This document shows, piece after piece, positions 16,423-45,396 of a stretch of 64,000 nt of DNA. Every line of letters begins with the position of its first letter. Position 1 is the first letter of the stretch. This DNA comes from a virus. Below the pieces are notes generated by a model. The model was not told the origin of the DNA, ran no database searches, and saw only the letters and a program-made list of their open reading frames with translations. The stretch covers positions 1 to 64,000 of IMG/VR virus record IMGVR_UViG_3300032291_003679; one strand, given 5' to 3'. The position numbers and the translations under genes are program-made.

Positions 16423-16424
16423 GG

Positions 16425-17147: not shown

Positions 17148-17484
17148 TGTTTGCTCCTTTGTAAGCGATTGGTTAGGGACAAGCAAACCATACCACTCGT
17201 GGGTCAGACTTCCCAACTTCACTTGACACCTTGCAACACAAGGGATTTGGACTTACCTACACCTATTGTTCTGACGATTCCGTGCCACTTACCTACACCT
17301 CTTATGTGTGGTCTGTGCGTTCCGAGCCACCTGCCGTGCGCCCCAACGCCGAGCCAGCCCTTACCTGCCCTGCCACCCCGAGTGCCTGCGCCTTCTTCGG
17401 GTGGAGCCCCGCGTTGTTCGGCGAGTCGGGCGGGGCTTAGGCCGACTTACCTACACCTAATGGGGACTTACCTACACCTAATGG

Positions 17485-17970
17485 TTACTCGTTGTCTTTG
17501 GGGTCTGAGATTCGCCACAGCCCCTTCTTGACCTTGATAAAAAGTGGAGATTCGCTCACATACTTCAGTGTTGTCTGGTACGAGAACCCAGCAACCTCAA
17601 CGAGCTGGTCGGTGGTGTATTCCTCACCTCGGTGTTCGTCTACCCACTTCTCAAAAGTTCCGTATTTATCTTTGCGTCTCTCGGTCTTGATGATTCCGTT
17701 ATTCGCAGTGCTGATGTGGGTAAGATACTTCTTGACGAACTCATTTATTACATCGTCACTGACGGAGTAAAAGCGAAGCATTGATACAGGGTTCCCATTG
17801 CACCCTTCCCTTTGCCACTTCTCCATGACATACAGCGCACGGACTGTCTCTGCAATGCGCCACATTTCCTGATGGTTGGCGTATTTCTGTTGTGGCTTCT
17901 TGTACTTCTTATCAAACTCGGCATACAACCGTGTGTTTTCTTCATGCACGAAATCAATAGTAAAGTTCAC
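17485..17970 (-). CDS. hypothetical protein with C-terminal HTH-like segment
   Basis: GTG start after AAGGA; YTTDQLVEVAGFSYQTTLKYV. Confidence 0.6.
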   Translation of the reverse strand: MNFTIDFVHEENTRLYAEFDKKYKKPQQKYANHQEMWRIAETVRALYVMEKWQREGCNGNPVSMLRFYSVSDDVINEFVKKYLTHISTANNGIIKTERRKDKYGTFEKWVDEHRGEEYTTDQLVEVAGFSYQTTLKYVSESPLFIKVKKGLWRISDPKDNE

Positions 17971-18321
17971 TTCTTTTTCCTTATTTAGATGTACCTGCAG
18001 CGCAACCCGTATGGACTCTAGCACTCGTCATCCAGACTTCCCCAAGTTGCAAATAAAAAATGAAAAACTGTGTTGCCAGTAAGCCCTATGGCTCGACTTC
18101 CACCACCGTCAAAGGGAAACCAACTAGAAAATCCTGCCGCCGGCTCGAGAACTGTTTTTCAAAAAATCAAAAAATCTGACACCCCTTAGTTGCTACGTAG
18201 CATTTTGACCGTTTCGTGCGGGGCTCCATCCCCCAAATGGCGAGGAAAAGAAAGAGGAGTGTCACTGCCAACTGAACAGCGACACCCCTCTTGGTGTAGG
18301 TAACTGAAAGGGGGGACTTAC

Positions 18322-18531
18322 CTACACCTGACCTATAACTACGAACTGGTCTCCTGCTTCCTCAACAAGACCGAGGTTGCTTCCGTTGTCCCATTTGACA
18401 AACACCGTTCCGATGTCGTCCACAAAGTCCACCGTCCCCTCTTCTCCTGATTTGAGTTTCGTGTAGGGGTCTGTGCATGTGATTAGCCTGACCCTCTTGC
18501 CGACTAGGTGTTCGTTTCTTGCTCGCCTCAT
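18322..18531 (-). CDS. DUF4314-like protein
   Basis: GKRVRLI..DPY..GTVDFVDDIGTVFVKWDNGSNLGLV. Confidence 0.8.
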   Translation of the reverse strand: MRRARNEHLVGKRVRLITCTDPYTKLKSGEEGTVDFVDDIGTVFVKWDNGSNLGLVEEAGDQFVVIGQV

Positions 18532-18674
18532 GCTGGAACCTCGCTTTCTGTATTGGTGCTGATTAGTAGGCGAATGTCTAAGAGCAGGTCGGTCATCTCT
18601 ACTGATGACACAATGTCCCTGCCCGAGCAGTGCGCTATTGCTTTATCCACTAGGGCGACAAGTTCAGTATCCAT
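18528..18674 (-). CDS. small hypothetical protein (48 aa, MDTELVALVDKAIAHC...)
   Basis: ATG directly after a 14-mer copy; ATGA coupling to the next gene. Confidence 0.55.
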   Translation of the reverse strand: MDTELVALVDKAIAHCSGRDIVSSVEMTDLLLDIRLLISTNTESEVPA

Positions 18675-18681
18675 GACTTAC

Positions 18682-19377
18682 CTACACCCCCTTGTCTTTC
18701 TTTTTCGGAGCCTTGTCAAGCATGTCTTTGTAAGCAAGCGTCTTGGTGGCAAGGTGCATGTAGCCAACCGTGGCAAGTAAAGCGTCAGGAATACGACCAT
18801 TTGTTTCATGCTCTTTGTCCACTGTGAATGTGTTGCACATTGGTTCTTCGTCAAACTCGGGAACTCCGTGGTCGTCATAGCGATAGAGGCTCGCAATGCT
18901 CCACACATTCGTAGCGTTCCAATCCACGGCAGTCATTATGATTCCTTCACGAACATCAGAAAATGGATTTTCTTTGTAGTCCTTCTCAAAGTCGCCTCTG
19001 TCGTGGTTATGTGCCTCTTCTTCGGTCATCTCTGACTTTGCGTATCCCTCAACGAGTAGAACAATAAAGTCAAACGGACGAATCGGGAGTGACTTCACAA
19101 CATCTTCGTAAGCGTCAAAAATGTCCTCTTTGTGAATGAGAGGAATCATCGCCAAGTGGTATGGCTTTGAGAGTGAGAACTCATGTTGGTAGTCCACGCA
19201 TGCTTCGTGGTCGGGATTACTGTCATTGCTCTCAACGGCAACAAGGAACAGTGGTGGACTGTCTTGCATTGGCTCGTCTTTGCACATTTCTGTCTTTGCA
19301 AAGACGGCTCGGTTGAGCAAATCTTCCATTATTGCTCTGATGTCGTTGTCAATAACTTCATTCTCTTGTGGTGTCAT
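18682..19377 (-). CDS. hypothetical protein
   Basis: GAAAGGGG RBS; own promoter; stop codon lies inside a 14-mer. Confidence 0.75.
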   Translation of the reverse strand: MTPQENEVIDNDIRAIMEDLLNRAVFAKTEMCKDEPMQDSPPLFLVAVESNDSNPDHEACVDYQHEFSLSKPYHLAMIPLIHKEDIFDAYEDVVKSLPIRPFDFIVLLVEGYAKSEMTEEEAHNHDRGDFEKDYKENPFSDVREGIIMTAVDWNATNVWSIASLYRYDDHGVPEFDEEPMCNTFTVDKEHETNGRIPDALLATVGYMHLATKTLAYKDMLDKAPKKKDKGV

Positions 19378-19499
19378 TGGTTGCCCCTTTCAGGCGTTTT
19401 GTGTTCATTGGAAGCATACCACTTGTGGGACAGACTTCCAATAGTTACCTACACTGGATAGTGGGAGTCGGTACAAGCCCCCACATGCCAGCCATTTTT

Positions 19500-19724
19500 C
19501 TACTTCTCTCCGAGCAGTGTGTTCACCGATACTCCAAGAGCATTACTTACAGCGAGCAGTGTTTCCACACTCGGCGTGAACTGCCCATTCTCAATACGGT
19601 TCACCGTTTTTCGGTCAAGACCTGCACGGTTGGCAAGTTCCAACTGTGACCAGCCGTTCTCGCTTCTGTGAACTCGTACGATTTCTGAGATTTGCTCAAT
19701 GGATTTAGTTGATGATGTTCCCAT
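19500..19724 (-). CDS. XRE/Cro-C1 HTH transcription regulator
   Basis: WSQLELANRAGLDRKTVNRIENGQFTPSVETLLAVSNAL. Confidence 0.9.
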   Translation of the reverse strand: MGTSSTKSIEQISEIVRVHRSENGWSQLELANRAGLDRKTVNRIENGQFTPSVETLLAVSNALGVSVNTLLGEK

Positions 19725-19787
19725 GTTGGGATTCCTTCTTTCTTTATTGGGGGATTATTTGTGTGTGTGTAGTTACCTACACCTATT

Positions 19788-20528
19788 TCAGACAGACGAA
19801 ATGAATGTGCGTGGCGTTCTCCCTTCTTTATCGCAACGGCGAACATAGGCGAGGTGCTTCTTGTATTCGTTCATGCACAAAGACATGTCGGTATCGCATT
19901 GGTCTAAAAGGTGGTGGTTCCACTCGGAGTGTGCTTCCCACCATTCTTCCATTGCGTCATCGGGGGCGTCCTCTGCCTCTGCTTTTTCACAGAGTTTGCT
20001 CAACTCGGGGGTGAGATGTTGGGGGTCACGCTCGCCAGCCTCAATGATGATTCCATTATGAAACACTGACCAACAGATGAACGCCATTGACTCTTCATCA
20101 GAGCAGGTTCCAAAAATAAGATTTGGATAAAGAGTAGAAATCTTTTGGATTAGTCCGTCGGCAGGCGACCATGCAGATTCGTAACGCACAGAAATCGTGT
20201 TTTTTACAGGGGTTGTGTCGTCAATCTCGGGTCGGCATGCACCCCACTTACTTCCCCAAGTTTCGCAAGCGTCTAAGTACCCATCAAATCCATCACTTGC
20301 GCTAGTGAACGCAGTGAATGTAGTTTCTACTCCATCAGCGTTAGTCGTCTTGATTTCCTTTGACCCTCGTGGGTCTAGTGGTACGAGTTTATTCAGGTCG
20401 TACTCAACGGTAACTCGTGATTTATCTCCCTCAACTTTGACATCGGCAACTGTAATGTCTTTGACGAACTTGGCGAGTTCTCGCTTATTCCCCATGACGG
20501 TCATGTATGTGTAACACCAGTTAGGCAT
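19788..20528 (-). CDS. DUF1281/YubB-like protein
   Basis: MPNWC..WGSKW..ESAWSP motifs; GAAAGG RBS. Confidence 0.75.
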   Translation of the reverse strand: MPNWCYTYMTVMGNKRELAKFVKDITVADVKVEGDKSRVTVEYDLNKLVPLDPRGSKEIKTTNADGVETTFTAFTSASDGFDGYLDACETWGSKWGACRPEIDDTTPVKNTISVRYESAWSPADGLIQKISTLYPNLIFGTCSDEESMAFICWSVFHNGIIIEAGERDPQHLTPELSKLCEKAEAEDAPDDAMEEWWEAHSEWNHHLLDQCDTDMSLCMNEYKKHLAYVRRCDKEGRTPRTFISSV

Positions 20529-20811
20529 TTGATTTTCCTTTCGGTTTGGTAGATACACAGAGCGTACCACCCTCGGGACAAACTTCCCCGAGTTACCTAC
20601 ACCTCTCTTCCACCACCGTCAAAGGGTTTAGTGGGGTGGGCTACCTGCTGCGCCCCCCGTCACGCGAGACCTCTTGCCCCCGACCCCGACTTGCCTGCCG
20701 AGCACCCCCAACTGCCTGCTCGTGCTGGAGCCCCGGCCGACTCGGAGCATGCGGGGCTTCTTGTCAAAGTATCCAATCGGATACTTTTTGTGCTGGAAAA
20801 GTTACCTACAC

Positions 20812-21114
20812 CTAATCGGCTGGGTCGGCAGAGAGCAGGGAAACAGCCCTGACCCTGTGACCGACTCTCTTGGAGTCGTGAATGAATGTCAGTAGGTTGC
20901 GTAGGCTGGGAATGTAGGTAAATGTCTCGTCCACAGACCAGCCGTAGTCGTCAAATAGGGCTTCACTCTCTGGCTCGGGAGCGAAGGAAATGGTAAAAGT
21001 GTCATCACTGGTGTTGCCCGACCAGCGCACAACTATTGACGCCCCAACCAGCAACTCATGTCCTAAACGGACACGGCGAAAGTATGAGATAAGGAGAGAG
21101 ATGTACAGGAACAC
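20812..21114 (-). CDS. hypothetical protein
   Basis: Start and stop both overlap 14-mer copies. Confidence 0.5.
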   Translation of the reverse strand: MFLYISLLISYFRRVRLGHELLVGASIVVRWSGNTSDDTFTISFAPEPESEALFDDYGWSVDETFTYIPSLRNLLTFIHDSKRVGHRVRAVSLLSADPAD

Positions 21115-21124
21115 TTACCTACAC

Positions 21125-21631
21125 CTATCTTTCCCACTCCTTGTAGACCTGCATTGCTGGCTTGTGTCTGTCCTCGGCAGAGAGTGACCCAACGAACTTG
21201 GTCAGTTCGCCAAGAATGATGAGATAGTCCACTTCCGTCAGACCATGCTCGTCCACTATCCATTTCACGATGTTGTCGTAATCGTCCCAAAGAATCTCCA
21301 TAGCCTGAACTGCTGTTGTCGCCAGCGTGTAGTGGTTCTCCCACAGTAAGTCTCGCACTTCTTCTCTCATGTCTGGACTGGTCATAGACTTACCTACACC
21401 TTCTTTGTTGCATTTACACATGTCGGCAACATCACACTGACACCAGTCTGCTGTCATGTCGCAGTAGAAACAATAGCGAGTATTCTCGTCTTTCTCGGGA
21501 ATCAGTCCACAAGTTGGACAGAGTGGGCGATACATGTCGTCAAGAATCTCGGAAAGTCGTTTCATTTCTCCCATTTCAGTCCTCACATTCACAGTCGTAC
21601 AAATCTTCTCCACATTCATCGCAGAGGTCAA
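21125..21631 (-). CDS. hypothetical protein (Cys-rich N half joined through GVGKS to a second domain); true start probably near 21574
   Basis: ORF track; internal 14-mer followed by ATG at 21385. Confidence 0.55.
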   Translation of the reverse strand: MTSAMNVEKICTTVNVRTEMGEMKRLSEILDDMYRPLCPTCGLIPEKDENTRYCFYCDMTADWCQCDVADMCKCNKEGVGKSMTSPDMREEVRDLLWENHYTLATTAVQAMEILWDDYDNIVKWIVDEHGLTEVDYLIILGELTKFVGSLSAEDRHKPAMQVYKEWER

Positions 21632-21881
21632 GTTCGTCTAGTTCTACATCGTCAATGTCCAAACCTTTATCATGGGCAAACCATGTCATAACGGTCAGAA
21701 GTAGTTTGTCGTAGTCGCCAGAAGTTGCTTCCTTGTGGAACTCGTCCCACTCGTGATGAATCTTGTTCTGCTTCATGATTCGGCTCACTCGTCCGAGAAT
21801 GGCAAACGCATTGCCGTCCTCTCCAACAAGTGGAATGTTGATGTTTGGATACTTCGGGTTGATTATGGTGTAGGTGCTCAT
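21576..21881 (-). CDS. conserved phage hypothetical protein
   Basis: LVGEDGNAFAILGRV..EATSGDYDKLL motif. Confidence 0.75.
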   Translation of the reverse strand: MSTYTIINPKYPNINIPLVGEDGNAFAILGRVSRIMKQNKIHHEWDEFHKEATSGDYDKLLLTVMTWFAHDKGLDIDDVELDELDLCDECGEDLYDCECED

Positions 21882-22093
21882 TGTGACTGTTCTCCTGTTT
21901 CGTCGTTGATAGCAAATGCGTCATGAATCTTTGCCCCAGCAAGTTCTGCTTCCTGACGGGCAAACTCCCATGCGAGTTTCTTTGCTTCTGCCATGCTCTT
22001 GGCTTCCACTGTTGTGGATTCGTGCCATTCAGCAAGCCCTTGTGGTTCCTGCTTGGTCAAGAAGACCATCAGTTCGTATGTTTGTGTTGCCAT
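21878..22093 (-). CDS. hypothetical protein
   Basis: GAAAGGG RBS; own promoter. Confidence 0.7.
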   Translation of the reverse strand: MATQTYELMVFLTKQEPQGLAEWHESTTVEAKSMAEAKKLAWEFARQEAELAGAKIHDAFAINDETGEQSQ

Positions 22094-22460
22094 GATTTCC
22101 CTTTCGCATTGGCTTCGCCATCACAGTACCACACAGGGGACAGACTTCCCAAAGCACAGAGTTACCTACACCCACACGGTCTTCCACCACCGTCATTGTG
22201 TTGAGAGATACCTGCTGCGCCCACCCGTTGTTTTTTCATTTTTTTGTTTTTTCAGTTTTTTCGGGTTACCTGCTGCGCACCCCCACGCGTTCCAGCGACT
22301 GCTTCCCGAGGAAGCCCCGGCCCGATTCGTGGTCCGATTCGTAGCGGGGCTCCTACTCCAAAGCCCGACTCGGGAGTCACTTATCTAGCCGTGACCCGAG
22401 AGTTACCTACACCTATCCCCCCTCGCCCAACCGAGACGAGAGAGAACAGGTGTAGGTAAG

Positions 22461-22802
22461 TCAGAGCGTGAACTGACCACCTCGTTGCTCGTAACGCTGA
22501 ACGGCTGTTCCGACATGCTCGCAGTAGTCGCCGTCTGCCAGCGACCAGCCCTCGGGACGGTCATACGCAGTCCACACGGCGAAAGGGTGGAGAGAGTTGT
22601 GGGGCAGGTGGCACAGAACGAGCCACCAAGCGTAAGCGTCCACATCGCTGGAACGAACCAGCCAGCAAGCGAGAACGGTCACGGCATGCTCCATGCTCGT
22701 GGGCGTGATGACTTCGCCAGCACGGAGCATGCGCATGGGGTATGTGTCTGTCGGGGACTTACCTACACCTTCCACGGTCACTTCCCCTCTCCGTTGAGCC
22801 AT
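22461..22802 (-). CDS. hypothetical protein (true start probably near 22781)
   Basis: ORF track; contains GVGKS. Confidence 0.5.
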   Translation of the reverse strand: MAQRRGEVTVEGVGKSPTDTYPMRMLRAGEVITPTSMEHAVTVLACWLVRSSDVDAYAWWLVLCHLPHNSLHPFAVWTAYDRPEGWSLADGDYCEHVGTAVQRYEQRGGQFTL

Positions 22803-23227
22803 GCGTCAAACTGCTCGTCTGTCAAGGTTGTGACCTTTGGAGAGAGGTCAATGTCTGCGATAGTCGCTTTGACTAGTTCGCTTACTTCCTCATTAGCGAG
22901 GAACGCATGAGCCACTTCTACGAAACGGTCAGAGATGTACTGCTCGGGAACATCGTGGTTCTCTCCGTCGTACTCGCCTTCTTGGCTTAGTGCGCCAAGA
23001 ACGACCACATCGCCAACGAGAGGACGACCAAACAGAACGCTTGCGATGATGTTGGGAGCAAGTCCGATGAGCAGACCTTCGTCGTTCACATAGCCAACGA
23101 TGTCATCGTTGCGAACGCAGTCAATCCAGCCACCACATAGTTCATTGAGAACAAGATGACCTTCCTCGCTCGGAATGTCTGTTTGGTAGAGGTCGCCCTC
23201 TGCCGTGATTACTAGTGCATTTGCCAT
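22778..23227 (-). CDS. DUF3846-like protein
   Basis: GGWIDCV..YVNDEGLL..PN..LVGDVVVLG. Confidence 0.8.
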   Translation of the reverse strand: MANALVITAEGDLYQTDIPSEEGHLVLNELCGGWIDCVRNDDIVGYVNDEGLLIGLAPNIIASVLFGRPLVGDVVVLGALSQEGEYDGENHDVPEQYISDRFVEVAHAFLANEEVSELVKATIADIDLSPKVTTLTDEQFDAWLNGEGK

Positions 23228-23558
23228 TGCTAACCCCTTTCAGGTTGTGTATTGGTGGCGACCACAGCGTACCACTAGTGGTTCAGACTTCCACCCGAGA
23301 CTTACCTACACCTGTTGCGCAGGCTTGCGAAACCTACCTGCCGAGCACACCCGTGTTCTCTCCTCCCCCCTGCTGGGGGTGGGAGCCCCGTCTGTGGTCG
23401 GGCATCGGGCGGGGCTTCTGCCCCCAACCCTCGCCCCTCGGTGGAGTTACCTACACCTAACCCAACGCCTGAACCCCCTTGCGCCTCTCGGACACTCGGG
23501 GGCTGATAGGTGTAGGTAAGTGGGGGAGACTTACCTACACCCTTTCAGGCTCGGTTGG

Positions 23559-23960
23559 TCAGACTGCTTCTGACTTGGCAGTGGGCTTGACTGCGCCCTT
23601 CGCAGGGCGTACCAGCACTCGTACTGACGAGGTGACGGACACGACTGCTTTGATGACTTTCGCAGACACTTTGCCTTCCTTCACAGCCCTGTCCCACGCA
23701 GAGGTGTCCACAGAGGGCTTGGTGACGGTACGGAACAGAGGTGCGCTGATGAGGTCACGCAACTTGTCGGTGTCAAATGAACGACGGTCACTTGGGCTGA
23801 CCTTGATGTTGAGTTCTGCGTAATCCAGCGTTTCTACGCCGTGCTTCGCATAGACATTCAGCAAGAGTTCACGAGCCTCGTCGTGAGCCTGCTCTGCTTG
23901 TTCTCGGGCAGTGAGAGCGTTTAGAAACGCCTCGGTTGCTTCCAATACTTCCTTGTTCAT
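23559..23960 (-). CDS. hypothetical protein (coiled-coil N-terminus)
   Basis: GAAAGGG RBS; own promoter. Confidence 0.7.
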   Translation of the reverse strand: MNKEVLEATEAFLNALTAREQAEQAHDEARELLLNVYAKHGVETLDYAELNIKVSPSDRRSFDTDKLRDLISAPLFRTVTKPSVDTSAWDRAVKEGKVSAKVIKAVVSVTSSVRVLVRPAKGAVKPTAKSEAV

Positions 23961-24524
23961 TTGGACACCCTTTCAGTGGTAGATGAACGCCACACGCCGT
24001 GTTGCTTGTGGCTTGCCACAAGCATACACCCCCTCGGTCAGACTTTCCAACTTCGCTTGACGGACTTACCTACACCTAATCCGAGTTCCCCTTCCAGCCA
24101 GCACCTCTCGGATAGATTTACCTGCTATGCCCACCCGTGTTGCGCCCCCTTCCCTTTGGTCGGGTGGAGCCCCGCAGGTTTGTGGTCTAGGCCGGGGCTC
24201 CTGCCCCACAAGTGGTTCGGCAACACAGTCGGGGAAGCACGGCAGGTAATGGAGATTTATGTGTGGGATTACACGGGTCGGCTTGCTCGGATACGGCAAC
24301 TGACTGATGAGGCAAACAGGCTGACTGCTCTTGTTCGTGAAGCGAACGACAACACTCGTGCGAGCCTTCGCAGGGGGGAGTTCAGAGTTACCTACACCAC
24401 CTCTGCCGACCCTCTGCCTGAATAGGTGTAGGTAAGTCCAAGGACAAGAGAAAGGGGCTGACTCGCCTTCTTGGCAAGCCAGCCCCTCTCGGGTGAAGTC
24501 CCCTGTTGAGGTAGGGAAAGGGGA

Positions 24525-24968
24525 TTAGAGGTACTTCACCACGCTGTGATAAGTGCTTGTGGACACAACCTCTTGGTCGCTCATCTCCAACACTCGGATA
24601 GCGTTCTCCAACGCTTCCTTGTCGTTCTTGTATTCCCATTCACGGTATGTCTCAGGGCTTTCAGGCTGTTGTGCGAGCAGAGCCTTCGGAAGGGACACGG
24701 TGAGTTCTACGACTTCGTGAGTGTCGGGAACGGTGTTTCGGTGATAACCGACAATGGTGACATTGACAGGCTTCGCTTTGCCGTTCTTGACAGAAGCGAT
24801 TACTGCCTTCTCAAAGTCTGCTTTCCACTTGTCGTAAGCCTTCTTGTGGTCGGCTTCTTTCTTGTCGTTGTTGGCGAAGCGTTCCTCACGCTCTGCCAAT
24901 GCTTTACGCAAGGCTGTAAGCAGAACGCTCACTTTCACCTTGACGCTGATGTTGCTGTTTCGTGCCAT
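24525..24968 (-). CDS. hypothetical protein
   Basis: Start MARNSN after GAAAGGG; own promoter. Confidence 0.7.
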   Translation of the reverse strand: MARNSNISVKVKVSVLLTALRKALAEREERFANNDKKEADHKKAYDKWKADFEKAVIASVKNGKAKPVNVTIVGYHRNTVPDTHEVVELTVSLPKALLAQQPESPETYREWEYKNDKEALENAIRVLEMSDQEVVSTSTYHSVVKYL

Positions 24969-25056
24969 TGGTTTCCCTTTCGGTTGGAGTTGTAGGCACA
25001 CGAACAGTACCACTCGTGGTTCAGACTTCCGAGAGTTACCTACACCTAGATAGTAA

Positions 25057-25090: not shown

Positions 25091-25116
25091 CGACTTGGGG
25101 GAACTAGGACTGTGCG

Positions 25117-34728: not shown

Positions 34729-34735
34729 GTAACTC

Positions 34736-37254: not shown

Positions 37255-39171
37255 ATGAGGTTGTACCTAGATAAGAATGAGATAGTGCTGGACTTTCCCT
37301 ACGACCAGCATCAGGTTTCCGAACTGAAGCAGATTCGTGGAGCACGGTGGGATAAGCAGACGAAGTTGTGGCGTGTACCTATTACGTCTCTTGCAGAGGC
37401 ACGTGAGTTTGCTATCAAACATGAGTTCGACGTAACAATCGACGTACTTACATTCAGTGCCCCCAAGCCACGCACCGGCACAGCGAAGGTGTACCTCGAT
37501 GAAGACATGATTGCTGTTCGTGTTCCGTACGAACGCGTCATAGTAAAAGCAGTGAAACAGATTCCGGCAGTGTCGTGGAATGCGAAGAAACATTATTGGC
37601 AGGCACCAGCGTCATCTGTTCTCAATGTAATGGAGTGGGCAGAGAAGTTCGAAGTACCCGTAGAGCCCGAAGTATCTGCGATGTCGAGCGAAGTTACTGC
37701 ACGCATGAATCAGTTCATTGAGGCATCACGCTCAACAGAGGCAGAGATAGAGATACCTACACTCCAAGGAGAACTGCTGCCATACCAGCGCGCAGGTGTT
37801 GCCTACGCATCGAGTGCCAAGCGCACATTCATTGCTGACGACATGGGATTAGGCAAGACGCTGCAATCAATAGCAACGCTCGAATACGTGTGGGATTCGT
37901 ATCCTGCTGTTGTCGTGTGTCCTCCAAGTCTTGTACTCAACTGGGTAGCAGAATGGAATCGATGGCTTCCGAACAGAAGAATCGCTCACGTGACGAACCG
38001 AAAGGATTTCCCTGAACGTGGTTCGTATGACGTCGTCATTGTTGGATACAGCAACATTGCTCATTGGGAGAAGAGACTCGCCGGCCATCGTGCTTACATC
38101 TTCGACGAGAGCCACTATGCGAAGACTCCAACTGCACAGCGCACAAAGGCAGCAGTGAAGATGGCAAAGTCTGCGCACAAAGATGGAATAGTTTTGTGCC
38201 TCACTGGAACACCCGTGACTAACCGACCAAACGAATACGCATCACAGTTAGAGATTCTCGGTCGTCTCAAAGACTTCGGAGGACTATGGGGTTTTTATCG
38301 TCGTTATTGTGCTGCGTATCAAGACAACTTTGGACAATGGAACATCAGTGGCAACTCACATCTCGATGAACTAAACGAAAGACTGCGTGGCACGTGTTAC
38401 ATACGTCGAACAAAAGACCAAGTTCTATCAGAGTTGCCACCCGTAATACATAGTCGTGTTCTTGTCGAAGGAAGCTCGACAACGATGAAAGAATACGTCA
38501 AAGCAGAGAAGGACATTCTTCTTTACATCGCAGAGAGAGCACGTCAACTCGCTCTCGAACAAGGAAAGCCATCGTATGGAGCAGCGATTGCAGCGATGAT
38601 TCGTGCAGAAGCAAATGAGCATCTTGTACGACTATCAGTACTGCGCAAAATTGCAGCAAAAGCAAAAATGGAAGTAGCAGAGGAATGGATAAATGCGCGT
38701 ATCGAGAATGGTAAGAAAGTCGTTGTCGCTGCTCACCACCGTGACATCGTTGATGAACTCGCTCGTAAATACGGCAATCTTCGAATTCAGGGTGGCATGT
38801 CGGTCGAAGAGGTGGAAGAGAATAAGCGTCGCTTTCAGACCGAGAGCGTGGAAAGCGCACCTGTCATTGTTCTTTCGATTCAGGCTGCAAAAACGGGACA
38901 CACACTAACAGCAGCAGAGGAATGTCTATTCTTGGAACTTCCGTGGACGCCTGCTGATGTTGACCAAACTTATAGTCGGCTCCATCGTCTTGGACAAAAA
39001 GGCAGCGTAACGGCGACTTACATGTTGACGTCAGGAACGATTGATGAGGAAATCTATGAAATCATCGAAGCAAAGCGTTCTGTTGTAGACGCAGCAGTCG
39101 AAGGTGGAAGTGTAGGTAACTCTGACTTGTCTACAAAGATGATTATGAGTCTGCTCGACAAACTTGCTTAG
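37255..39171 (+). CDS. SNF2-family helicase with N-terminal HARP-like repeats (SMARCAL1-like)
   Basis: DDMGLGKT, DESH, LTGTP, QTYSRLHRLGQ; two W..W HARP-like repeats; leaderless. Confidence 0.9.
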   Translation: MRLYLDKNEIVLDFPYDQHQVSELKQIRGARWDKQTKLWRVPITSLAEAREFAIKHEFDVTIDVLTFSAPKPRTGTAKVYLDEDMIAVRVPYERVIVKAVKQIPAVSWNAKKHYWQAPASSVLNVMEWAEKFEVPVEPEVSAMSSEVTARMNQFIEASRSTEAEIEIPTLQGELLPYQRAGVAYASSAKRTFIADDMGLGKTLQSIATLEYVWDSYPAVVVCPPSLVLNWVAEWNRWLPNRRIAHVTNRKDFPERGSYDVVIVGYSNIAHWEKRLAGHRAYIFDESHYAKTPTAQRTKAAVKMAKSAHKDGIVLCLTGTPVTNRPNEYASQLEILGRLKDFGGLWGFYRRYCAAYQDNFGQWNISGNSHLDELNERLRGTCYIRRTKDQVLSELPPVIHSRVLVEGSSTTMKEYVKAEKDILLYIAERARQLALEQGKPSYGAAIAAMIRAEANEHLVRLSVLRKIAAKAKMEVAEEWINARIENGKKVVVAAHHRDIVDELARKYGNLRIQGGMSVEEVEENKRRFQTESVESAPVIVLSIQAAKTGHTLTAAEECLFLELPWTPADVDQTYSRLHRLGQKGSVTATYMLTSGTIDEEIYEIIEAKRSVVDAAVEGGSVGNSDLSTKMIMSLLDKLA

Positions 39172-39620
39172 TCGTTGTTCGGCTTTGACTCAGTCGTGTC
39201 GACACCCGAGATTATTTCCTGAGCAATCAACTTCGCATACTTTCTGCGAAGACGCCAAATCTTTCGATTCATCTCAATCAGTTCTTTGCTCATGCGAGCC
39301 TTGATGATTGCGTCGTCATCGAATACGCCATGAATAGTAAACAGCGCATCGTGCAGTTCTGTGTCTTCGATGAGAATGTCTGAAATCCACCCAGCACGAT
39401 TGTCGATTGCCATCATCAATTCACACATTCCCTCGACACCAAACTCGTCGAAAAGTCTGTTTACGACAATGTTGCAGAAGTGTCTTCTGTACAACCTTTG
39501 GGCCTTCTGTGATTGAGACATGAACTCTGACAGCCATACTGCAAGTTCTGCGCTCGAACGTTCATCTCCACTTTCATAGGCAGAGTCGATGAAGTCGTCA
39601 TCATCTTCGTCATCATGCAT
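39168..39620 (-). CDS. hypothetical protein
   Basis: GGGAGAGG RBS. Confidence 0.65.
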   Translation of the reverse strand: MHDDEDDDDFIDSAYESGDERSSAELAVWLSEFMSQSQKAQRLYRRHFCNIVVNRLFDEFGVEGMCELMMAIDNRAGWISDILIEDTELHDALFTIHGVFDDDAIIKARMSKELIEMNRKIWRLRRKYAKLIAQEIISGVDTTESKPNND

Positions 39621-39673
39621 GACGCCTCTCCCTTATGTCCGGAACTCTACCCAAATGATAACAGCAGTAGACA

Positions 39674-40699
39674 TTACACTGCTGACAAGAGATGGTCTTG
39701 CGCTTTTACCTTTGCTCGTGACACCCATGAATTCGCACTCATCGAAGCAAGCGCACGTTCTGTCAATGTTGCGTCACGATAGTGGTCAAGGTATTCACCA
39801 ATCGCATTGACAAGCGACCAGCCGTTATACCCATAGTTCTTTGCGTTGTTGTCATTCGCATACACGGCACGAACTAGCGCAACTACCTCTTCACGGTTCT
39901 TTTGCTGACGTTCGGTTGCATCTTTTGCTAATGGAAACACGGCGTCAAGAGTCTTGTCGAGAATAGGTGACGATGCAGGGACATTGATTGATAACAGTTG
40001 TTCTGCTGTGCGAGAGAACTCACGAGCCCATGCGCTAGAAATGTTGAGAACTTCGTTTGCCTGTTCCATTGCTCTATCTGCATTGCGTGTATGTCTTGCA
40101 GTGAATACTCGCTTCGCTGACGAAACGCCAGCAATCACTGTGTTTTTACACACGGCACGAATGCTTGTGTTTGCGAACGTGATTGCCGTCTTGCCGTCGT
40201 GACCGTTATGCACTAGCAGGTAACGCTCGATTGAGTCGTTGATACCCATGGGGTCGATGATGAGGGAACCCATGTCAATAGATGCAAAGAACTCTCGACC
40301 ATCATGCAGGACTCCACACGTATCTACAACGGCGTCTCCCCCCGATGCGCCAACGATGTCGAGCGCATAGTCAAGACATTCACGATTTTGCTGAACGACA
40401 TAGCGTGTACCAACGGTGGCGAGACCGTCGAACGAACCGTCTGCGTTCACCCGTACGGTTGCACGGGAATCGGGAACAAGAATCGTAGTGCCATCAGGCT
40501 GACGAATCGGCTCACCGGTATCGTCACATACGGCAACCCGTGTTGTCACTACGTCGAAATCTGCCTGCGCTGCTTGGAGCATTGCCTCTGCTGTTTGCAG
40601 ACCTTTCATGGCTGTACCCATTCGGTGCCACGGGATTTCTCGGTCTACATACGCCATGCGTACTGTGCCGTCTTCGTTGATTTCTAACTGATGAGCCAT
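39674..40699 (-). CDS. DUF932/DUF945-family phage/plasmid protein
   Basis: PWH.G, YVVQQN, NGHDG, IRAVCKNT, RHT, NAIGEYLDH. Confidence 0.85.
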   Translation of the reverse strand: MAHQLEINEDGTVRMAYVDREIPWHRMGTAMKGLQTAEAMLQAAQADFDVVTTRVAVCDDTGEPIRQPDGTTILVPDSRATVRVNADGSFDGLATVGTRYVVQQNRECLDYALDIVGASGGDAVVDTCGVLHDGREFFASIDMGSLIIDPMGINDSIERYLLVHNGHDGKTAITFANTSIRAVCKNTVIAGVSSAKRVFTARHTRNADRAMEQANEVLNISSAWAREFSRTAEQLLSINVPASSPILDKTLDAVFPLAKDATERQQKNREEVVALVRAVYANDNNAKNYGYNGWSLVNAIGEYLDHYRDATLTERALASMSANSWVSRAKVKAQDHLLSAV

Positions 40700-40911
40700 A
40701 GTGTCTCCGTCTCTCTATCGTGTAGATAAATCTATCTGAAAGATGTGTCGTGTAGGGGAAGTGTAGGTAAGTAGTGCGGGGCTCCCGAAGGGAGGAGGCT
40801 CACCTGTGCGCTGTGAGACGGGTGAGCACGGCAGGTGACTCGGGAAGCCTGACCCACCCGTGGTACTCTGTGGGTGTCGGGGGGAAAGTCTCCCCGACAA
40901 AGGAGTTCATC

Positions 40912-41418
40912 ATGTTCCCAGCATCTATCCACCAAGCACTCACAGGCGAGGCGACCACCGACCTCGGTAACGGGGCATACTCTGTGGGGCAGGTTCCCAC
41001 AGAGGCAGAGGCGTTCGTCAAGTCGTACGAGCCATGCGAAAACTCACCCGTCCATACCGTCCCCACCGACCCAACTGTCGTCACGCTCGCCGAGGTGACC
41101 ACCTACCTGCGCCTCGTTGCCGAAGGTACAAGCAAGGACGCAGGATTTGCAGGGAGCCTCGTGGCATACGCCGAGCGCACGGGAACGCTCACCGAGAAGC
41201 AGGCGAAACACGCTCGCCGACTCTACGCTAAATGGCACCGTGCCTGCGAGTGGCTCGCTCGCCACAAGAACGGACAGCACGCGTGGAAGTACGCAGGGAC
41301 AAAGTGTCACAACAGCAACTACGACCTCGGCACCTACGCCGAAACCTCGTACTACCAGTGCGAGCAGTGTGGGAAGTGGAAGTCGCAGTACACGAACAAG
41401 AACTACTCGGGGGACTGA
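40912..41418 (+). CDS. hypothetical protein
   Basis: AAGGAG RBS; own promoter; C-terminal CxxC. Confidence 0.7.
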   Translation: MFPASIHQALTGEATTDLGNGAYSVGQVPTEAEAFVKSYEPCENSPVHTVPTDPTVVTLAEVTTYLRLVAEGTSKDAGFAGSLVAYAERTGTLTEKQAKHARRLYAKWHRACEWLARHKNGQHAWKYAGTKCHNSNYDLGTYAETSYYQCEQCGKWKSQYTNKNYSGD

Positions 41419-41450
41419 CCCGAAGAGGTGTAGGTAACCCAAGACGGACA

Positions 41451-41512
41451 GCCCCCACCCCACGCCCCCACCCCACGCCCCCACCCCACGCCCGAACACC
41501 CACGCCCCCACC
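41451..41512. repeat. 13-bp C-rich tandem repeat (GCCCCCACCCCAC) x3 plus degenerate copies
   Basis: Seen directly in sequence. Confidence 0.8.
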
Positions 41513-41672
41513 TGCCTCCGAGAGCAGAGGGCAAGCCGAGCGAAGCGAGACGGGAGAAAGCGAGGAACCAAGCGGGGCTCCTACCCCAATGACGGTGCAT
41601 GGGTGCATACACGGGTGGGCACGGCAGGTAGTCCGATTTGGAAGTCTGAACCGTTAGTGGTACATTTATGGC

Positions 41673-42881
41673 ATGACCGAAGTTTCATCTGCCTCAATCG
41701 CCTTTGACCTGCACACGCGATACTTGGAATATCGCAAGAGCCACCCAACGATGGACAGGCTCTTACATCTCGGATACTTTCGCGCCATGTGGGCAGACGA
41801 CGATACGCCTATTCTGACCCGTGAGGCATTAGAGAGCGAAGCAAAAATGGGCGCAGTTCATCACGAAGTACATCGCGCACTAGACGACACAATCATCGCA
41901 CTCGGTGACACCGTGTTTCTCACTGACGACTTGCGTGAGTTGGTCAAGACGGCAGAAGTAACAATGCCTGATGAGGTGTTATTTGAGACGGACATTTTCA
42001 CCCCGTGTGGATTCATCGTGATGGAGACTCCACTGCCACAAACGGTGAAGTCGCTTATCAAGGCCGAAGATTTTGACGAAGTGCTAACACTCTCAAAAAA
42101 GTACGGCGCAATCATCACTGGAACGCGCAACGACACTGAACCTGACGAAGATGGAAACTATGTAGGCGTAGAGAACTGGGAAGTGCAGGCGTTTGCATGG
42201 GCTGACGCGAGCGCAATAACACCCGAAGCACTTTCGGAAATAGAGAGACGGTTTGGGAAAGACAGCAACGAGTACGCCTTCGCTCAAAACATTTCTAAGA
42301 ACTCAGGAAATGACAGTGCCATTCAGGTGCGTGTTTTCGGAACTCTTATCTCTACCACTGTCAATGGGCTAACGATAGAAGTTCCACAACTACACCTTGC
42401 CCCTTTACGACTAATGGATATGTACGCGTTCTTCTACGGCGAAGATGGAATGGAAATAGAACGCGAAGTAAGTGGTGTAGGTAACTTTTCAGAGGCCGAC
42501 CTGAACGAGTCCTCATGGGAACGAAGCAGAGAAGTGCGCCGATTTCTTGTTGCTCTGTTCCGTCTCATGGACGAGTATGTGGACATTGACAGGCACGGCC
42601 TGCATCGCGCTTTCGGAAAGCGAGCAACCCGTGGTGGCCGAACAGGTGACACGAAGAATGTCACGATTCTCTCACTGCGTCGTGCGCTCGGTGATGATGA
42701 AGAAGGAATCGGTGCAGGAGCGAAGGTGACGCTCGCGCATCTCGTCCGTGGCCACTGGCGCAATCAGTGGTATCCATCACAGAAGATGCACCGTGCGAAA
42801 TGGATACGCGCACACCGTCGTGGTGGCAGTGCTGGTGATGAAGTGACTGCACGGCCTCGCATCATCAAGGTGGACAGATAG
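41673..42881 (+). CDS. conserved phage protein with C-terminal VRGHWR motif, leaderless
   Basis: HLVRGHWRNQWYPS..WIRAHRRG; ATG 6 nt after TACATT. Confidence 0.8.
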   Translation: MTEVSSASIAFDLHTRYLEYRKSHPTMDRLLHLGYFRAMWADDDTPILTREALESEAKMGAVHHEVHRALDDTIIALGDTVFLTDDLRELVKTAEVTMPDEVLFETDIFTPCGFIVMETPLPQTVKSLIKAEDFDEVLTLSKKYGAIITGTRNDTEPDEDGNYVGVENWEVQAFAWADASAITPEALSEIERRFGKDSNEYAFAQNISKNSGNDSAIQVRVFGTLISTTVNGLTIEVPQLHLAPLRLMDMYAFFYGEDGMEIEREVSGVGNFSEADLNESSWERSREVRRFLVALFRLMDEYVDIDRHGLHRAFGKRATRGGRTGDTKNVTILSLRRALGDDEEGIGAGAKVTLAHLVRGHWRNQWYPSQKMHRAKWIRAHRRGGSAGDEVTARPRIIKVDR

Positions 42882-42947
42882 AACCTGTGGACTTACCTAC
42901 ACCCGTAGCAGGCTCGCTATCAGGTGTAGGTAAGTCCGTTGGCCGTA

Positions 42948-43139
42948 TTAGTCTCGCGTTGGCGTGATTGCGAAACTGACTGAACGCTCGTCGTTGCGAG
43001 TCTCTGGAAAGTAGAACGCAAGACCGAGCCACGCTTGCGCTTCTCGCTTGCTGGCGAAGCCCGTGGCCTCAACCGTTGAGCGAGAGCGTCCGTTCGCGAG
43101 AACGGCAACGCGTGTGATGGTGAATGTGGAATGTGCCAT
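42948..43139 (-). CDS. small hypothetical protein
   Basis: GAAAGGGG RBS; own promoter. Confidence 0.6.
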   Translation of the reverse strand: MAHSTFTITRVAVLANGRSRSTVEATGFASKREAQAWLGLAFYFPETRNDERSVSFAITPTRD

Positions 43140-43378
43140 GATGAACCCCTTTCGTTCGGCAACACACACAGAGTACCACCGATGGAACAGACTTTCCAAA
43201 AGTGCATGATTACCTACACCTATTCGGCGCAACACTCGCACTCTATGCGAGGACAACCGAACGAAGTGAGGGCGTCAGCACCGGGGCTCCCACTCTCCAA
43301 CCATGCATAAGCACCGTGCCGAGACTTACCTACACCTAGTAGATGAGTGCCGACACGGTGAATACGCCGTGTACCGAA

Positions 43379-44083
43379 TCAGTATGCGTGTGGCGCGTCT
43401 ACTTCCATAGGTGCACGACACACATGACAGAGTGGGGACTCTGAACCGTCCTCACCGAATAGAGGTGTTTCGTCATCAGCGAGCGAGTACCCATGAGACT
43501 GCGAAAGCATTTCACCGTAGTTGCATTCCACTGAATGTTCTTCATCGTTCGGGCAAGTGAGCGAGTAGTTTGCGTTGTCGTATGGGAACGACTCTGCCAT
43601 GTCTACCGTGACACGGAATGCACGAGGACGCGTGTAGCCACCACGAACATCGCAACCCCCGTGAATCTGCAAGAGCACGAACACTTCACCACCGTCCGAG
43701 AATGTCACGCCCTGCAATGTCTGCGCGAGTGAGTCCTCTCCGTTGTATGTGTTCCATGTGTGTGCACTGTCGTCCTTTTCTGTTGCGAACTCTTGTGCGA
43801 GACCGAGCCACCCGTCATCAGGGTTCTCTTCACAGAACGCACGGAACTGCTTGTCCAAGAGTGGTGCATACTCCAATCGTTCTGAAAGGTAGTGATAGAC
43901 CGAGAGCGTCACGCCCCACTTGTCTGCCCATGCGCGAGGTTGCGCGTCCCACTCTGCGAGTGTGCGACCTGCGTTCTGTTCCCAGTGTCTCCCGTAGGCT
44001 CCACCACTGTCCAAGATGTGTCGTCCCGTAGGCTCCGTGAGCATTTCTGCGATTACTTCGCGTGTGCGTGTTGTTGTCTTCAT
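43379..44083 (-). CDS. conserved phage hypothetical protein
   Basis: HILDSGGAYGRHW; HGGCDVRGGYT. Confidence 0.75.
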   Translation of the reverse strand: MKTTTRTREVIAEMLTEPTGRHILDSGGAYGRHWEQNAGRTLAEWDAQPRAWADKWGVTLSVYHYLSERLEYAPLLDKQFRAFCEENPDDGWLGLAQEFATEKDDSAHTWNTYNGEDSLAQTLQGVTFSDGGEVFVLLQIHGGCDVRGGYTRPRAFRVTVDMAESFPYDNANYSLTCPNDEEHSVECNYGEMLSQSHGYSLADDETPLFGEDGSESPLCHVCRAPMEVDAPHAY

Positions 44084-44397
44084 GACTTACCTACACCCTT
44101 GTAAGGGTATGACGGGTGTGCCCGTCGCCCCTTGTGGCGAAGTGTGGCGATTTCGTTGCGTGACCACAGCGTGAGAAGTGTGCTGACAATCGTGCCAACA
44201 ATGGTGACGAACAATCCTGCGAAAGTATCGTACGCAGTGTGACTCCAATAAGAGAGAACAACAAGGTACGCACCAAGCGTGGTCACGAGATACGAAGCCC
44301 CCGTGATGAATCGGTAGATGAATGTTGGATAGTTGTCGTCCAACCAGTTAGTAGCCCGTGCGTCTGCTCGGTCTAGTTTGTCAATAATGTTTGCCAT
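44080..44397 (-). CDS. 2-TM membrane protein
   Basis: Start MANIID after GAAAGGG; ends GVGKS. Confidence 0.65.
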   Translation of the reverse strand: MANIIDKLDRADARATNWLDDNYPTFIYRFITGASYLVTTLGAYLVVLSYWSHTAYDTFAGLFVTIVGTIVSTLLTLWSRNEIATLRHKGRRAHPSYPYKGVGKS

Positions 44398-44568
44398 GTG
44401 GATTCCCTTTCCGTTTGAGTTGGCAAGATGAGCGTACCACAGTGGGGACAGACTTTCCGACCTACCTGCCGTGCCTCCCCGATGTGGCGAGGGGTGGGAT
44501 ACTTCCCCTGCTGGGAGCCCCGTTGTTTTTGACTCTTCTGTCATAACAGACACGAGTCGGTGACTTAC

Positions 44569-44826
44569 CTACACCTCGTCATCACCACGCAGGTAGTTGG
44601 CACGCATCACTTCCGTGCTGGCCTCACCTGTTTGGTCAAGCGTCGTGATGTCGTACACAGCACCACAGCGATAACACAGGTACGAAAAACCGTCCCATGC
44701 ACCCGTGGCGTCGGGGGCGATTATCTCTCCTGTTGGGAGACACGAGTAGAAGCCGTCGATGTCAGGTTCATTACCACATTCACAGACGAGCCAGTCTGCT
44801 GTAGTGCGTTCGAGATTGAGTGTCAT
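44569..44826 (-). CDS. small Zn-binding protein
   Basis: CECGN..CYRCG; stop lies inside a 14-mer. Confidence 0.7.
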   Translation of the reverse strand: MTLNLERTTADWLVCECGNEPDIDGFYSCLPTGEIIAPDATGAWDGFSYLCYRCGAVYDITTLDQTGEASTEVMRANYLRGDDEV

Positions 44827-45302
44827 GATGGTTCCTCTTGATGGGTGATGGAAGATACATCATAGGGGTTTTCTTCAGGGTCGTCATGCCACACGCCATC
44901 AGGCCATGCAGTACGTGTGTGTACTCCATGAACGTTCTTGCCGAAGATGTCAGTGGCCTGCCATGCATGTGTGCAACACGGCACTGGGGTGTCTCGTGAG
45001 TCAGGGTGACAGTTCTGTCCAATGTCTTGAGCGAGTAGAGGGAACGTAGCGAGGAACTTGGCAACACAGTCATGACAAAGAATCCATTCACGTGTACGCA
45101 GGCTTCCTGTCAGTACACGAACGTTGTCATCGAATCCACCGTAGTAGCCGAATGTGTCAAAGGGTAAGACCCAACCATTGTCAGGGTATGACTCCTGTTG
45201 TGTACACGGCACTGATGCACAGCATGCTGAACATCGTGCGTGCTTGACGACTGGTGTAGATGGTGTGATGAATGGTGACTGTGTGTCAGGCGTATCGCTC
45301 AT
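44823..45302 (-). CDS. Cys-rich hypothetical protein, leaderless
   Basis: ATG 7 nt after TACTCT. Confidence 0.65.
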   Translation of the reverse strand: MSDTPDTQSPFITPSTPVVKHARCSACCASVPCTQQESYPDNGWVLPFDTFGYYGGFDDNVRVLTGSLRTREWILCHDCVAKFLATFPLLAQDIGQNCHPDSRDTPVPCCTHAWQATDIFGKNVHGVHTRTAWPDGVWHDDPEENPYDVSSITHQEEPS

Positions 45303-45396
45303 GCGAGAAAGAGTACCAGTATGGGGACAGACTTACAACGTACCTGCAGTGCAACCCATGAGACGCCCGTGGCACTTGCGTCGTTCATGCTGATGG

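Follow-up and report, generated by a model that had tools for sequence, protein, structure and literature searches.

A putative phage-specific promoter class with T4-middle geometry in PeSL-like cassettes of an uncultured actinophage family

Introduction

In phage T4, middle promoters have their MotA box at a distance of 12 ± 1 bp from the -10 element (PMC2988021). T4-type phages also harbour PeSLs, which combine an early promoter with a stem-loop in hyperplastic regions rich in ORFans and mediate modular shuffling (PMC2839356, PMC4122927). Among the host promoters of Actinobacteria, TANNNT without any -35 element precedes 73% of the primary start sites of Mycobacterium tuberculosis, where the rare TGN-TANNNT promoters form the strongest class (PMC3898074); in Corynebacterium glutamicum, TAnnnT is accompanied by only a weak ttgnca and 33% of the mRNAs are leaderless, a type of message common in Actinobacteria (PMC3890552). 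This report addresses a 27-bp motif, made of a box and an extended -10 element at a fixed distance, that is repeated in one gene block of the phage genome IMG/VR virus record IMGVR_UViG_3300032291_003679. The window, i.e. the whole stretch of DNA that was analysed, is the first 64 kb (64,000 nucleotides) of this 158,021-bp record, and coordinates refer to it unless marked as genome coordinates. On the basis of position, composition and conservation, the copies of the motif are very probably a single family of promoters that serve one block-wide regulon.

A probable promoter family confined to one gene block

The motif GGAAGTCTG-N9-TGGTAnnnT has 26 matches in the window when up to 3 mismatches are allowed, whereas 1.5 are expected from shuffled sequences and the richest shuffle contained 5. 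With at most 1 mismatch, the whole genome contains 24 matches, all located between 17187 and 45336, and the reversed control pattern gives 0. Twenty-five copies were accepted as real, which agrees with the count of a previous reading made from the letters alone (hereafter the sequence-only reading): the copy at 24021, which has 3 mismatches and is conserved in orthologous regions, was counted and the match at 36937 was left out. The latter (36937-36963, minus strand) is a decayed copy, GGAAATCTG..TGGCACAGA, that lies within an open reading frame (ORF) and displays CACAGA instead of TAnnnT; it is probably not a promoter and may be a dead one. The accepted copies are confined to 17.2-45.3 kb and the scan of the remaining genome, which the sequence-only reading had proposed, found no boxed promoter outside 17187-45336. 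Within the block, all TGGTAYnnT sites (23/23) are boxed, and there are 0 boxed sites outside it; the 9-mer GGAAGTCTG has five exact copies elsewhere in the genome, all devoid of a -10. The block and the predicted promoters, with the genes that they precede, are as follows.

14300..46600, no strand: hyperplastic early-gene block, containing all promoter copies and all copies of the 14-mer described below
17187..17213, minus strand: promoter, AAA_5 ATPase gene 16425-17147
18015..18041, minus strand: promoter, gene 17485-17970; TGCTAGAGT variant, A/T-rich upstream, without 14-mer
19413..19439, minus strand: promoter, gene 18682-19377
20561..20587, minus strand: promoter, gene 19788-20528, then Cro-like helix-turn-helix (HTH) gene 19500-19724
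22123..22149, minus strand: promoter, gene 21878-22093
23266..23292, minus strand: promoter, DUF3846 gene 22778-23227
24021..24047, minus strand: variant promoter GAAAGTCTG..GTGTATGCT, gene 23559-23960; conserved in orthologues
25004..25030, minus strand: promoter, gene 24525-24968
25626..25652, minus strand: promoter, gene 25117-25587
26730..26756, minus strand: promoter, gene 26241-26690
27373..27399, minus strand: promoter, leaderless gene 27103-27366; A of the ATG 7 nt after the hexamer T
27900..27926, minus strand: promoter, gene 27447-27860; entire cassette inverted and relocated in relative G002
28686..28712, minus strand: promoter, gene 28248-28649
30012..30038, minus strand: promoter, gene 29788-29982; relatives without this cassette
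31855..31881, minus strand: promoter, gene 30660-31826; cassette in G003, not in G002
32831..32857, minus strand: promoter, gene 32288-32788; divergent from the promoter at 32993
32993..33019, plus strand: promoter, ParA-like gene 33060-33680
33707..33733, plus strand: promoter, gene 33778-33969
34133..34159, plus strand: promoter, gene 34190-34375 and the genes after it
35584..35610, minus strand: promoter, gene 35271-35555
40843..40869, plus strand: promoter, gene 40912-41418
41640..41666, plus strand: promoter, leaderless 402-aa gene 41673-42881
43170..43196, minus strand: promoter, gene 42948-43139
44431..44457, minus strand: promoter, gene 44080-44397
45310..45336, minus strand: promoter, near-leaderless gene 44823-45302; ATG 8 nt after the hexamer T

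The distance between box and extended -10 is N9 in all pairs examined (23/23 in this phage, 68/68 over four related genomes) and no other spacing within the range 5-14 was found. The invariance of N9 claimed by the sequence-only reading is therefore exact as far as its length is concerned, but N9 is not free sequence: it starts with W-M-C-C (the two C in 23/24 and 21/24, respectively) and ends with G in 22/24, so that only four positions vary. The full motif reads ttg-GGAAGTCTG-WMCC-NNNN-G-TGG-TAY-NN-T, followed by a weak GGTGTC around +1. The box proper is a 13-bp sequence, GGAAGTCTGWMCC, which covers -33 to -21 and leaves 12 bp between its end and the -10. Information content amounts to about 2 bits at the positions of the box and of the -10 and to about 0.05-0.36 at positions 14-17. 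T-T-G is weakly preferred immediately 5' of the box (TTG in 4/24 copies here and in 16/53 in close relatives).

The downstream half, TGG plus TAYnnT, matches the extended -10 (-15 to -7) recognized by sigma-70-family holoenzymes. In the sites with at most 2 mismatches, the T, G, T, A and final T of TGn-TAnnnT are each found in 24/24, the 25th copy (24021) displaying GTG-TATGCT. Counting from the end of the hexamer, a pyrimidine occupies position 6 in 22/24 and a purine position 7 in 23/24, i.e. the canonical -1/+1 step. All copies (25/25) have a start codon on the same strand 6-60 nt downstream. The statement that each copy points into a gene start proved right for both of the forms proposed: a GAAAGG-type Shine-Dalgarno sequence lies 6-10 nt ahead of the start codon in 22/25, with predicted leaders of 22-54 nt, and the other 3/25 (genes starting at 27366, 41673 and 45302) are of the leaderless type, with an ATG about 6-7 nt after the hexamer whose A falls at the predicted start position.

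Comparison with relatives points in the same direction. In the orthologous upstream regions of three related genomes (G001-G003, whose proteins are 44-96% identical), the core is kept in 39/40, whereas the sequence is randomised in the flanks and at the four central positions of the spacer. Ahead of gene 41673, the distance from the hexamer T to the ATG is exactly 7 nt in each of the four genomes, and the 6 intervening nucleotides all differ. Moreover, a scan of 17-36 kb for canonical E. coli-type sigma-70 -35/-10 sites yielded 3 sites, against 9.8 ± 3.1 in shuffles, none of them being a motif site; as canonical sites are depleted and none coincides with the motif, the 25 motif sites appear to be the promoters of the block. 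The promoter-regulon interpretation first made from the letters is thus upheld by the extended -10, the pyrimidine-purine step, the leaderless starts, the spacing and the footprinting of orthologues. A reading of the sites as extracytoplasmic function (ECF)-type or sigmaB-type promoters was ruled out by the spacing and the invariant -7 T.

An 18-base version of the composite motif, searched for in 596 Gb of prokaryotic genomes (about 186,000 species), gave only 4 singleton matches, in unrelated metagenome-assembled genomes. It is thus essentially absent from these data, which argues that it is not a host promoter class and that no integrated prophage carries it. Full-text literature searches for the 9-mer and the 14-mer returned unrelated primers only, and a topical search yielded no account of the motif.

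Origin of the box in related phages

At least 123 IMG/VR contigs contain a homologue (69-96% identity) of the AAA_5 ATPase gene that follows the first promoter. Upstream of these homologues, the same architecture is found with altered 5' box halves, CTAAGTCTG, GTAGGTCTG, GCTAGTCTG, AACAGTCTG, GGAAATCTG and GTAAATCTG. At least 8 clades have differing boxes, for example GGAAGTCTG, CTAAGTCTG, GTAGGTCTG, GCTAGTCTG, AAATCTG.., TTGGTATCTG.. and TTGTCGGTCAGGGGTGGGT. In three distant clades, the repeated promoter consists of TTGTAA followed by ATCTGATATC.., TTGGTA followed by TCTGTCCTG.. or TTGTCG followed by GTCAGGGGTGGGT.., with an 18-bp spacer and then TAnnnT; in the same register, the promoter of this phage reads (ttg)GGA-AGTCTGWMCC....TGG-TAYnnT. 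The geometry shared by the whole family is therefore TTGnnn-N18-TAnnnT, with conserved spacers that are clade-specific and a TTG-to-hexamer distance that is constant across clades.

Because distant relatives read TTGnnn-N18-TAnnnT, these promoters probably descend from ordinary sigma-A promoters and, by descent, the box would be the 3' half of a TTGnnn -35 element together with the upstream part of an 18-bp spacer. The absence of a -35 element reported by the sequence-only reading is thus accurate for this genome, where TTG is rare, but does not extend to the distant relatives. A weak TTG beside 13 nearly invariant bp is, judging from these alignments, a pattern unlike what sigma region 4 alone would impose. 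As the spacing is constant although the centre of the spacer varies freely, the box appears to work in register with the polymerase.

Cassette organisation of the block

Intergenic regions in the block, among them 27930-28250 (minus strand), measure 300-600 nt and fold far more stably than shuffled sequences (z = -7.6). Both the 14-mer and a second upstream element (ACACGGG..CGGCAGGTAAG) occur in them as nested inverted copies. Furthermore, CGGGGCTCC occurs in 28 copies that form GC-rich GGGAGCCCCG/CGGGGCTCCC hairpins just upstream of promoters, without U tails.

Units made of a promoter and an ORF are present, absent or moved among relatives (for example 21878-22093, 29788-29982, 30660-31826, 33778-33969, 34190-34375 and 35271-35555). 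One unit, 27376-27943, which extends from promoter to promoter, is inverted and relocated in G002, and 7/20 of the right ends of the G000-G002 nucleotide homology blocks lie 0-34 nt from a box. The block thus looks like a series of promoter-leader-ORF-hairpin cassettes that have been gained, lost and moved with breakpoints at the promoters. This PeSL-like organisation, which was absent from the sequence-only reading, would account for part of the uniformity of the promoters. Recombination may indeed add to this uniformity; the alternation of invariant and free positions goes beyond it.

The upstream site and the repeat families

In 22/24 copies, the box is preceded at 3-13 nt by an AGGTAA-type site with a (G/C)AGGTAA core, as had been noticed at the outset (an AGGT(A/G) site shortly upstream of the box). 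This core is part of the 14-mer AGGTGTAGGTAAGT in some copies and of ACACGGGTGGG..CGGCAGGTAAG in the others. Oriented copies of the 14-mer number about 80; all lie between 14332 and 46520 of the window, often as inverted pairs able to form 14-bp stems.

In two relatives, G002 (L069/L070) and G003 (L073/L074), both upstream forms carry TAGATAA instead of TAGGTAA, while the box is unchanged. The upstream site thus seems to evolve faster than the box and, because its core changes while the box stays, the two elements probably have different readers. Likewise, since the core of the 14-mer is TAGATAAGT/TAGATAACT in related phages instead of TAGGTAAGT, the reader of the 14-mer would differ between phages that share the box. 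The identities of orthologues did not point to a reader of the 14-mer; the Cro-like protein encoded in the block has the same helix in TAGGTAAGT and TAGATAAGT phages. A scan of IMG/VR for the 14-mer gave mostly chance singletons among the matches listed. As a separate observation, the 14-mer places stop codons in two frames (TAG-n-TAA).

Another repeat, the 17-mer (T/A)TGACGGTGGTGGAAGA, is found in about 10 copies, always on the transcribed strand, inside the block and to its left (10244, 10552, 11981, 12670, 13982, 18110, 20620, 22194 and 25692, all on the minus strand). At 10246-10218, it constitutes the -35 of a canonical TTGACG-N17-TAGAAT site; elsewhere, it is not followed by any -10. The 17-mer is almost unchanged in the distant clades L250, L259 and L268, being as invariant across the family as the recognition helix of the HA+HTH protein described below.

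Genome, host and gene content

The 158,021-bp genome has termini that overlap by 121 bp, which indicates a circular assembly, and a CheckV completeness of 100%. Its gene content (tail sheath, portal, terminase) is that of a myovirus. The proteins of the phage match best those of Arthrobacter, Gordonia and Mycobacterium phages, at about 30-44% identity; for terminase, helicase and DUF932 proteins, identity to cultured phages is only 28-44%. The two WhiB-family genes and these best matches to actinophages make an actinobacterial host likely, as the sequence-only reading had supposed. When 17-37 kb was compared by megablast with 50,697 phage records, nothing matched, and the phage apparently has no close cultured relative.

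The GC content of the block is 52-57%, against about 45% in the remaining genome. Besides its long structured intergenic regions, the block consists of small ORFs mostly of unknown function (ORFan-rich); its genes include those encoding the AAA_5 ATPase, the ParA-like protein and a DUF932 protein, and no structural gene. The ParA-like ATPase (33060-33680, plus strand, 206 aa) is followed by a 63-aa gene (33778-33969, plus strand), each having its own copy of the promoter, and the two genes resemble a type Ib partition pair. Searches for integrase genes, of the tyrosine or the serine type, found none in the phage. As the ParA-like pair is present and no integrase was found, a plasmid-prophage lifestyle is possible.

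Outside the block, no motif shared by the upstream regions of genes is evident, and canonical sigma-70-type sites are not enriched. An excess of GGCGCAACAGG outside the block had suggested a late promoter; this idea was rejected, the source of the excess being the collagen-like Gly-X-Y repeats of a tail-fibre gene. The latter (genome 144738-148475, minus strand, outside the window) encodes a tail-fibre-like protein of 1245 aa with long repeats of this type. Four tRNA genes, all on the minus strand, are located at 8410-8484, 53462-53537, 54389-54468 and 54673-54749 (Thr-TGT, Lys-TTT, Leu-TAG and Met-CAT).

Candidate readers of the box

The phage sigma-like factor envisaged by the sequence-only reading did not materialise: six-frame Pfam searches gave no match to sigma region 2 (Sigma70_r2, PF04542), with controls positive in 11/14 genomes, and the Sigma70_r4 matches are only small HTH proteins. 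The same type of search gave no match to the Rpb1 domain of multisubunit RNA polymerases (PF00623), for which the controls worked, nor to T7-type RNA polymerase (PF00940), for which the control was silent. Four proteins may be considered as candidate readers or partners.

13583..13957, plus strand: candidate regulator, 124-aa protein that combines a helicase-associated (HA) domain with a sigma-region-4/LuxR-type HTH, beside the block
19500..19724, minus strand: candidate regulator, 74-aa Cro/C1-type HTH protein, inside the block
7921..8271, plus strand: WhiB-like protein, candidate partner of sigma region 4
genome 71836-72177, minus strand: second WhiB-like gene, candidate, outside the window

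The HA+HTH gene is present in 78/80 related loci. Across 40 aligned homologues, the helix LSRQRVHQI is invariant, and the 25 invariant residues of the protein include the entire recognition helix. Its structural model has a pLDDT of 87, and Foldseek and a PDB-sequence profile search gave generic tri-helical HTH matches only. Both WhiB-like genes encode basic C-terminal tails and are conserved in relatives. Cellular WhiB-like proteins bind region 4 of sigma-A. By analogy, the phage WhiB-like proteins may be attractive candidate readers, a role that is conjectural.

Mechanism and rival explanations

The best explanation of the whole, to which a probability of about 0.45 may be given, combines sigma-A extended -10 promoters arranged in cassettes, a positive box read by a factor and an upstream control. 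The host RNA polymerase with its primary, sigma-A type factor would use the 25 sites by binding the extended -10 TGG+TAYnnT. Transcription would start at the purine 7 nt past the hexamer, giving either messages with 22-54-nt leaders that include the GAAAGG site or leaderless mRNAs. The 13-bp GGAAGTCTGWMCC, locked 12 bp from the -10, would be a second determinant under selection. As the TTG has decayed here, yet the box and its spacing are under strict selection, the box would be a positive promoter element; that it is a factor-read -30 element acting together with sigma-A polymerase at the extended -10 is proposed tentatively, as something short of an even chance. A phage-supplied protein located at or beside sigma region 4 would read the box jointly with RNA polymerase, the candidates being the HA+HTH protein, the two WhiB-like proteins and the Cro-like HTH protein, and the phage-specific upstream site (14-mer family) would provide a separate, second layer of control. 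A more specific version, rather unlikely, would be an independently evolved analogue of T4 sigma appropriation, in which a small phage protein sits on sigma-A region 4 or replaces it, reads the box and redirects the polymerase towards about 25 promoters of the extended -10 type; the WhiB-like proteins or the protein with HA domain and sigma-4-like HTH would be the candidates, and the box would have been carved from an ancestral -35 and spacer.

Several observations weigh against a factor-read box. Six-frame searches found no match at E <= 1 to the MotCF domain of MotA (PF09158) or to AsiA (PF09010), so that the search for sigma- and AsiA-like genes advocated by the sequence-only reading found none, nor any homologue of MotA or of another known appropriator. 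The analogy with T4 middle promoters that it drew stands for the position of the box, 12 bp from the -10 (PMC2988021), but is not accompanied by MotA/AsiA homologues. Across clades that carry different boxes, the helices with which the HA+HTH and Cro-like proteins would contact DNA show little or no variation; therefore, neither of these HTH candidates explains the clade-specific part of the box and they could only read a constant feature. In addition, the TCTG core shared by the boxes shifts by 0-2 bp relative to the -10 across clades while TTG is fixed, which, from the alignments, appears to fit a remnant of -35 and spacer as well as a factor site. Finally, the extended -10 alone may suffice for an actinobacterial polymerase, in which case the box may instead serve as a negative operator or be contacted by the polymerase directly.

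The last two possibilities correspond to distinct rivals, neither of them likely. If the sites were immediate-early promoters used by the unmodified host sigma-A polymerase alone, the box would tune promoter strength by direct contact or DNA shape without any phage factor, and exchange between cassettes by recombination would account for part of its uniformity, on the model of the PeSLs and 'uber' early promoters of T4-type phages. Such a view, which is rather doubtful, has several points in its favour: the TTGnnn-N18-TAnnnT geometry of the family implies descent from ordinary -35/-10 promoters, the genes look early (ORFans, AAA_5 ATPase, ParA-like, DUF932, no structural genes), the cassettes are shuffled at promoters, T4 early promoters carry extra consensus regions too (PMC2988021) and TGN-TANNNT is the strongest promoter class of M. 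tuberculosis (PMC3898074). However, the TTG best read by sigma region 4 is found in only 4/24 copies beside 13 bp that are nearly invariant, recombinational homogenisation would not leave 4 free positions between invariant blocks, and the hosts do not use the composite motif themselves, as its 4 singleton matches in 596 Gb indicate. To our knowledge, no base-specific contact of the polymerase at -30 to -21 has been described for sigma-70 holoenzymes, which also counts against a purely host-driven promoter. Were the box instead an operator, a phage repressor bound at -33 to -21 of all 25 promoters would shut off early transcription within a few minutes of its onset or silence the block in a non-integrating, plasmid-like prophage, in analogy to the control by repressor and stoperators in Cluster A mycobacteriophages. 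The Cro/C1-type HTH gene inside the regulon, the ParA-like gene without integrase, compatible with a plasmid-prophage lifestyle, the about 80 oriented 14-mers of the block, which recall stoperators (PMC3203893 contrasts SAS with L5 stoperators), and an extended -10 able to work without upstream contacts all suit this unlikely alternative. Yet occlusion needs no exact phasing, whereas the spacing is invariant in 68/68 with a free spacer middle; moreover, no gene of the block has an extended -10 promoter lacking the box, the recognition helix of the Cro-like protein barely changes across clades with different boxes and no prophage copy of the motif was found in about 186,000 species genomes.

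Two further explanations fit the data far less well. It is very improbable that a dedicated phage sigma, an alternative host sigma or a phage RNA polymerase reads GGAAGT and TGGTAC as its -35 and -10. SigmaB/F-type promoters have the geometry GTTT-N12-15-GGGTAT, which GGAAGT-N12-TGGTAC loosely resembles, and the phage encodes large unannotated proteins, such as one of 2391 aa without Pfam or PHROG match; but no Sigma70_r2, Rpb1 or (with a silent control) T7-type polymerase domain was found in the six-frame searches, the invariant -7 T, -11 A and TG at -15/-14 with a predicted start 7 nt downstream are the signature of group 1/2 sigma factors, and the distance from TTG to the hexamer is constant across clades. 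That the repeats are not promoters at all, being instead the ends of mobile or recombination elements similar to miniature inverted-repeat transposable elements (MITE-like) or an RNA-level signal between genes, is hardly credible: the nested inverted repeats and strong folding of the intergenic regions and the synteny breakpoints located at the repeats would be expected, but the orientation towards the downstream gene is strict (25/25), the start codon always follows within a limited distance, four genomes share the -10 and +1 signatures together with the leaderless ATG at +1, and the pattern of invariant and free positions fits the reading of DNA by a protein and not mere identity between copies.

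Comparison with known systems

If a phage factor does read the box, this would be the first switch resembling sigma appropriation outside the T4 group, and would be located in Actinobacteria, where the -35 is only weakly recognized and sigma region 4 already serves as a docking site for proteins of the WhiB type. The clades that have different boxes at the same geometry constitute a natural experiment to find the reader by co-variation. Whatever the reader, the locus would provide a comparative definition of a strong actinobacterial promoter, with its exact +1, its leaderless variants and its leader with ribosome site. It also suggests that the gene shuffling by promoter-terminator cassettes known from T4-type phages operates in an unrelated, widespread family of uncultured phages (>120 contigs).

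Like the sigma-A promoters of Actinobacteria, those of the block display TGnTAnnnT, a weak or absent -35, a predicted purine start about 7 nt downstream and, in leaderless genes, an ATG at +1 (PMC3898074; PMC3890552). Unlike them, they possess a conserved element at -33 to -21, and the composite motif is essentially absent from sequenced prokaryotic genomes. The tens of short asymmetric motifs in one orientation next to gene starts also recall the start-associated sequences (SAS) and extended SAS (ESAS) of Cluster K phages and the stoperators of Cluster A (PMC3203893), which are likewise confined to the non-structural part of the genome and conserved across related phages before unrelated genes. 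However, SAS lie at the ribosome-binding site, 3-7 bp from the start codon, and stoperators are repressor sites of temperate phages, whereas the motif described here spans -33 to -7 of a promoter, is separated from the start codon by 28-60 nt or by the exact leaderless distance, and occurs in a phage in which no integrase was found.

As in the PeSLs of T4-type phages (PMC2839356, PMC4122927), near-identical early promoters and G/C-rich stem-loops precede ORFans in a hyperplastic region, and close relatives differ by the insertion, loss or displacement of units of promoter and ORF, whose junctions fall within the conserved element. The promoters of PeSLs, however, match the E. coli -35/-10 with an AT-rich UP element, whereas those of the block combine an extended -10 with a lineage-specific box; the intergenic regions of this phage are also much longer (300-600 nt), contain extra repeat families and belong to an unrelated phage lineage. 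As in T4 middle promoters (PMC2988021), a phage-specific box near -30 lies 12 bp before a TAnnnT that is often preceded by TGn, and dozens of copies would form one temporal regulon with the host polymerase kept. Unlike in T4, the sequence of the box is unrelated, its length is 13 bp instead of 9-10 and the host is actinobacterial; furthermore, the MotA box replaces the -35, whereas the box described here would derive from the -35 and the spacer, TTG persisting in relatives. Taken together, these comparisons point to a phage-specific promoter class with T4-middle geometry, set in PeSL-like cassettes, in a family of uncultured actinophages.

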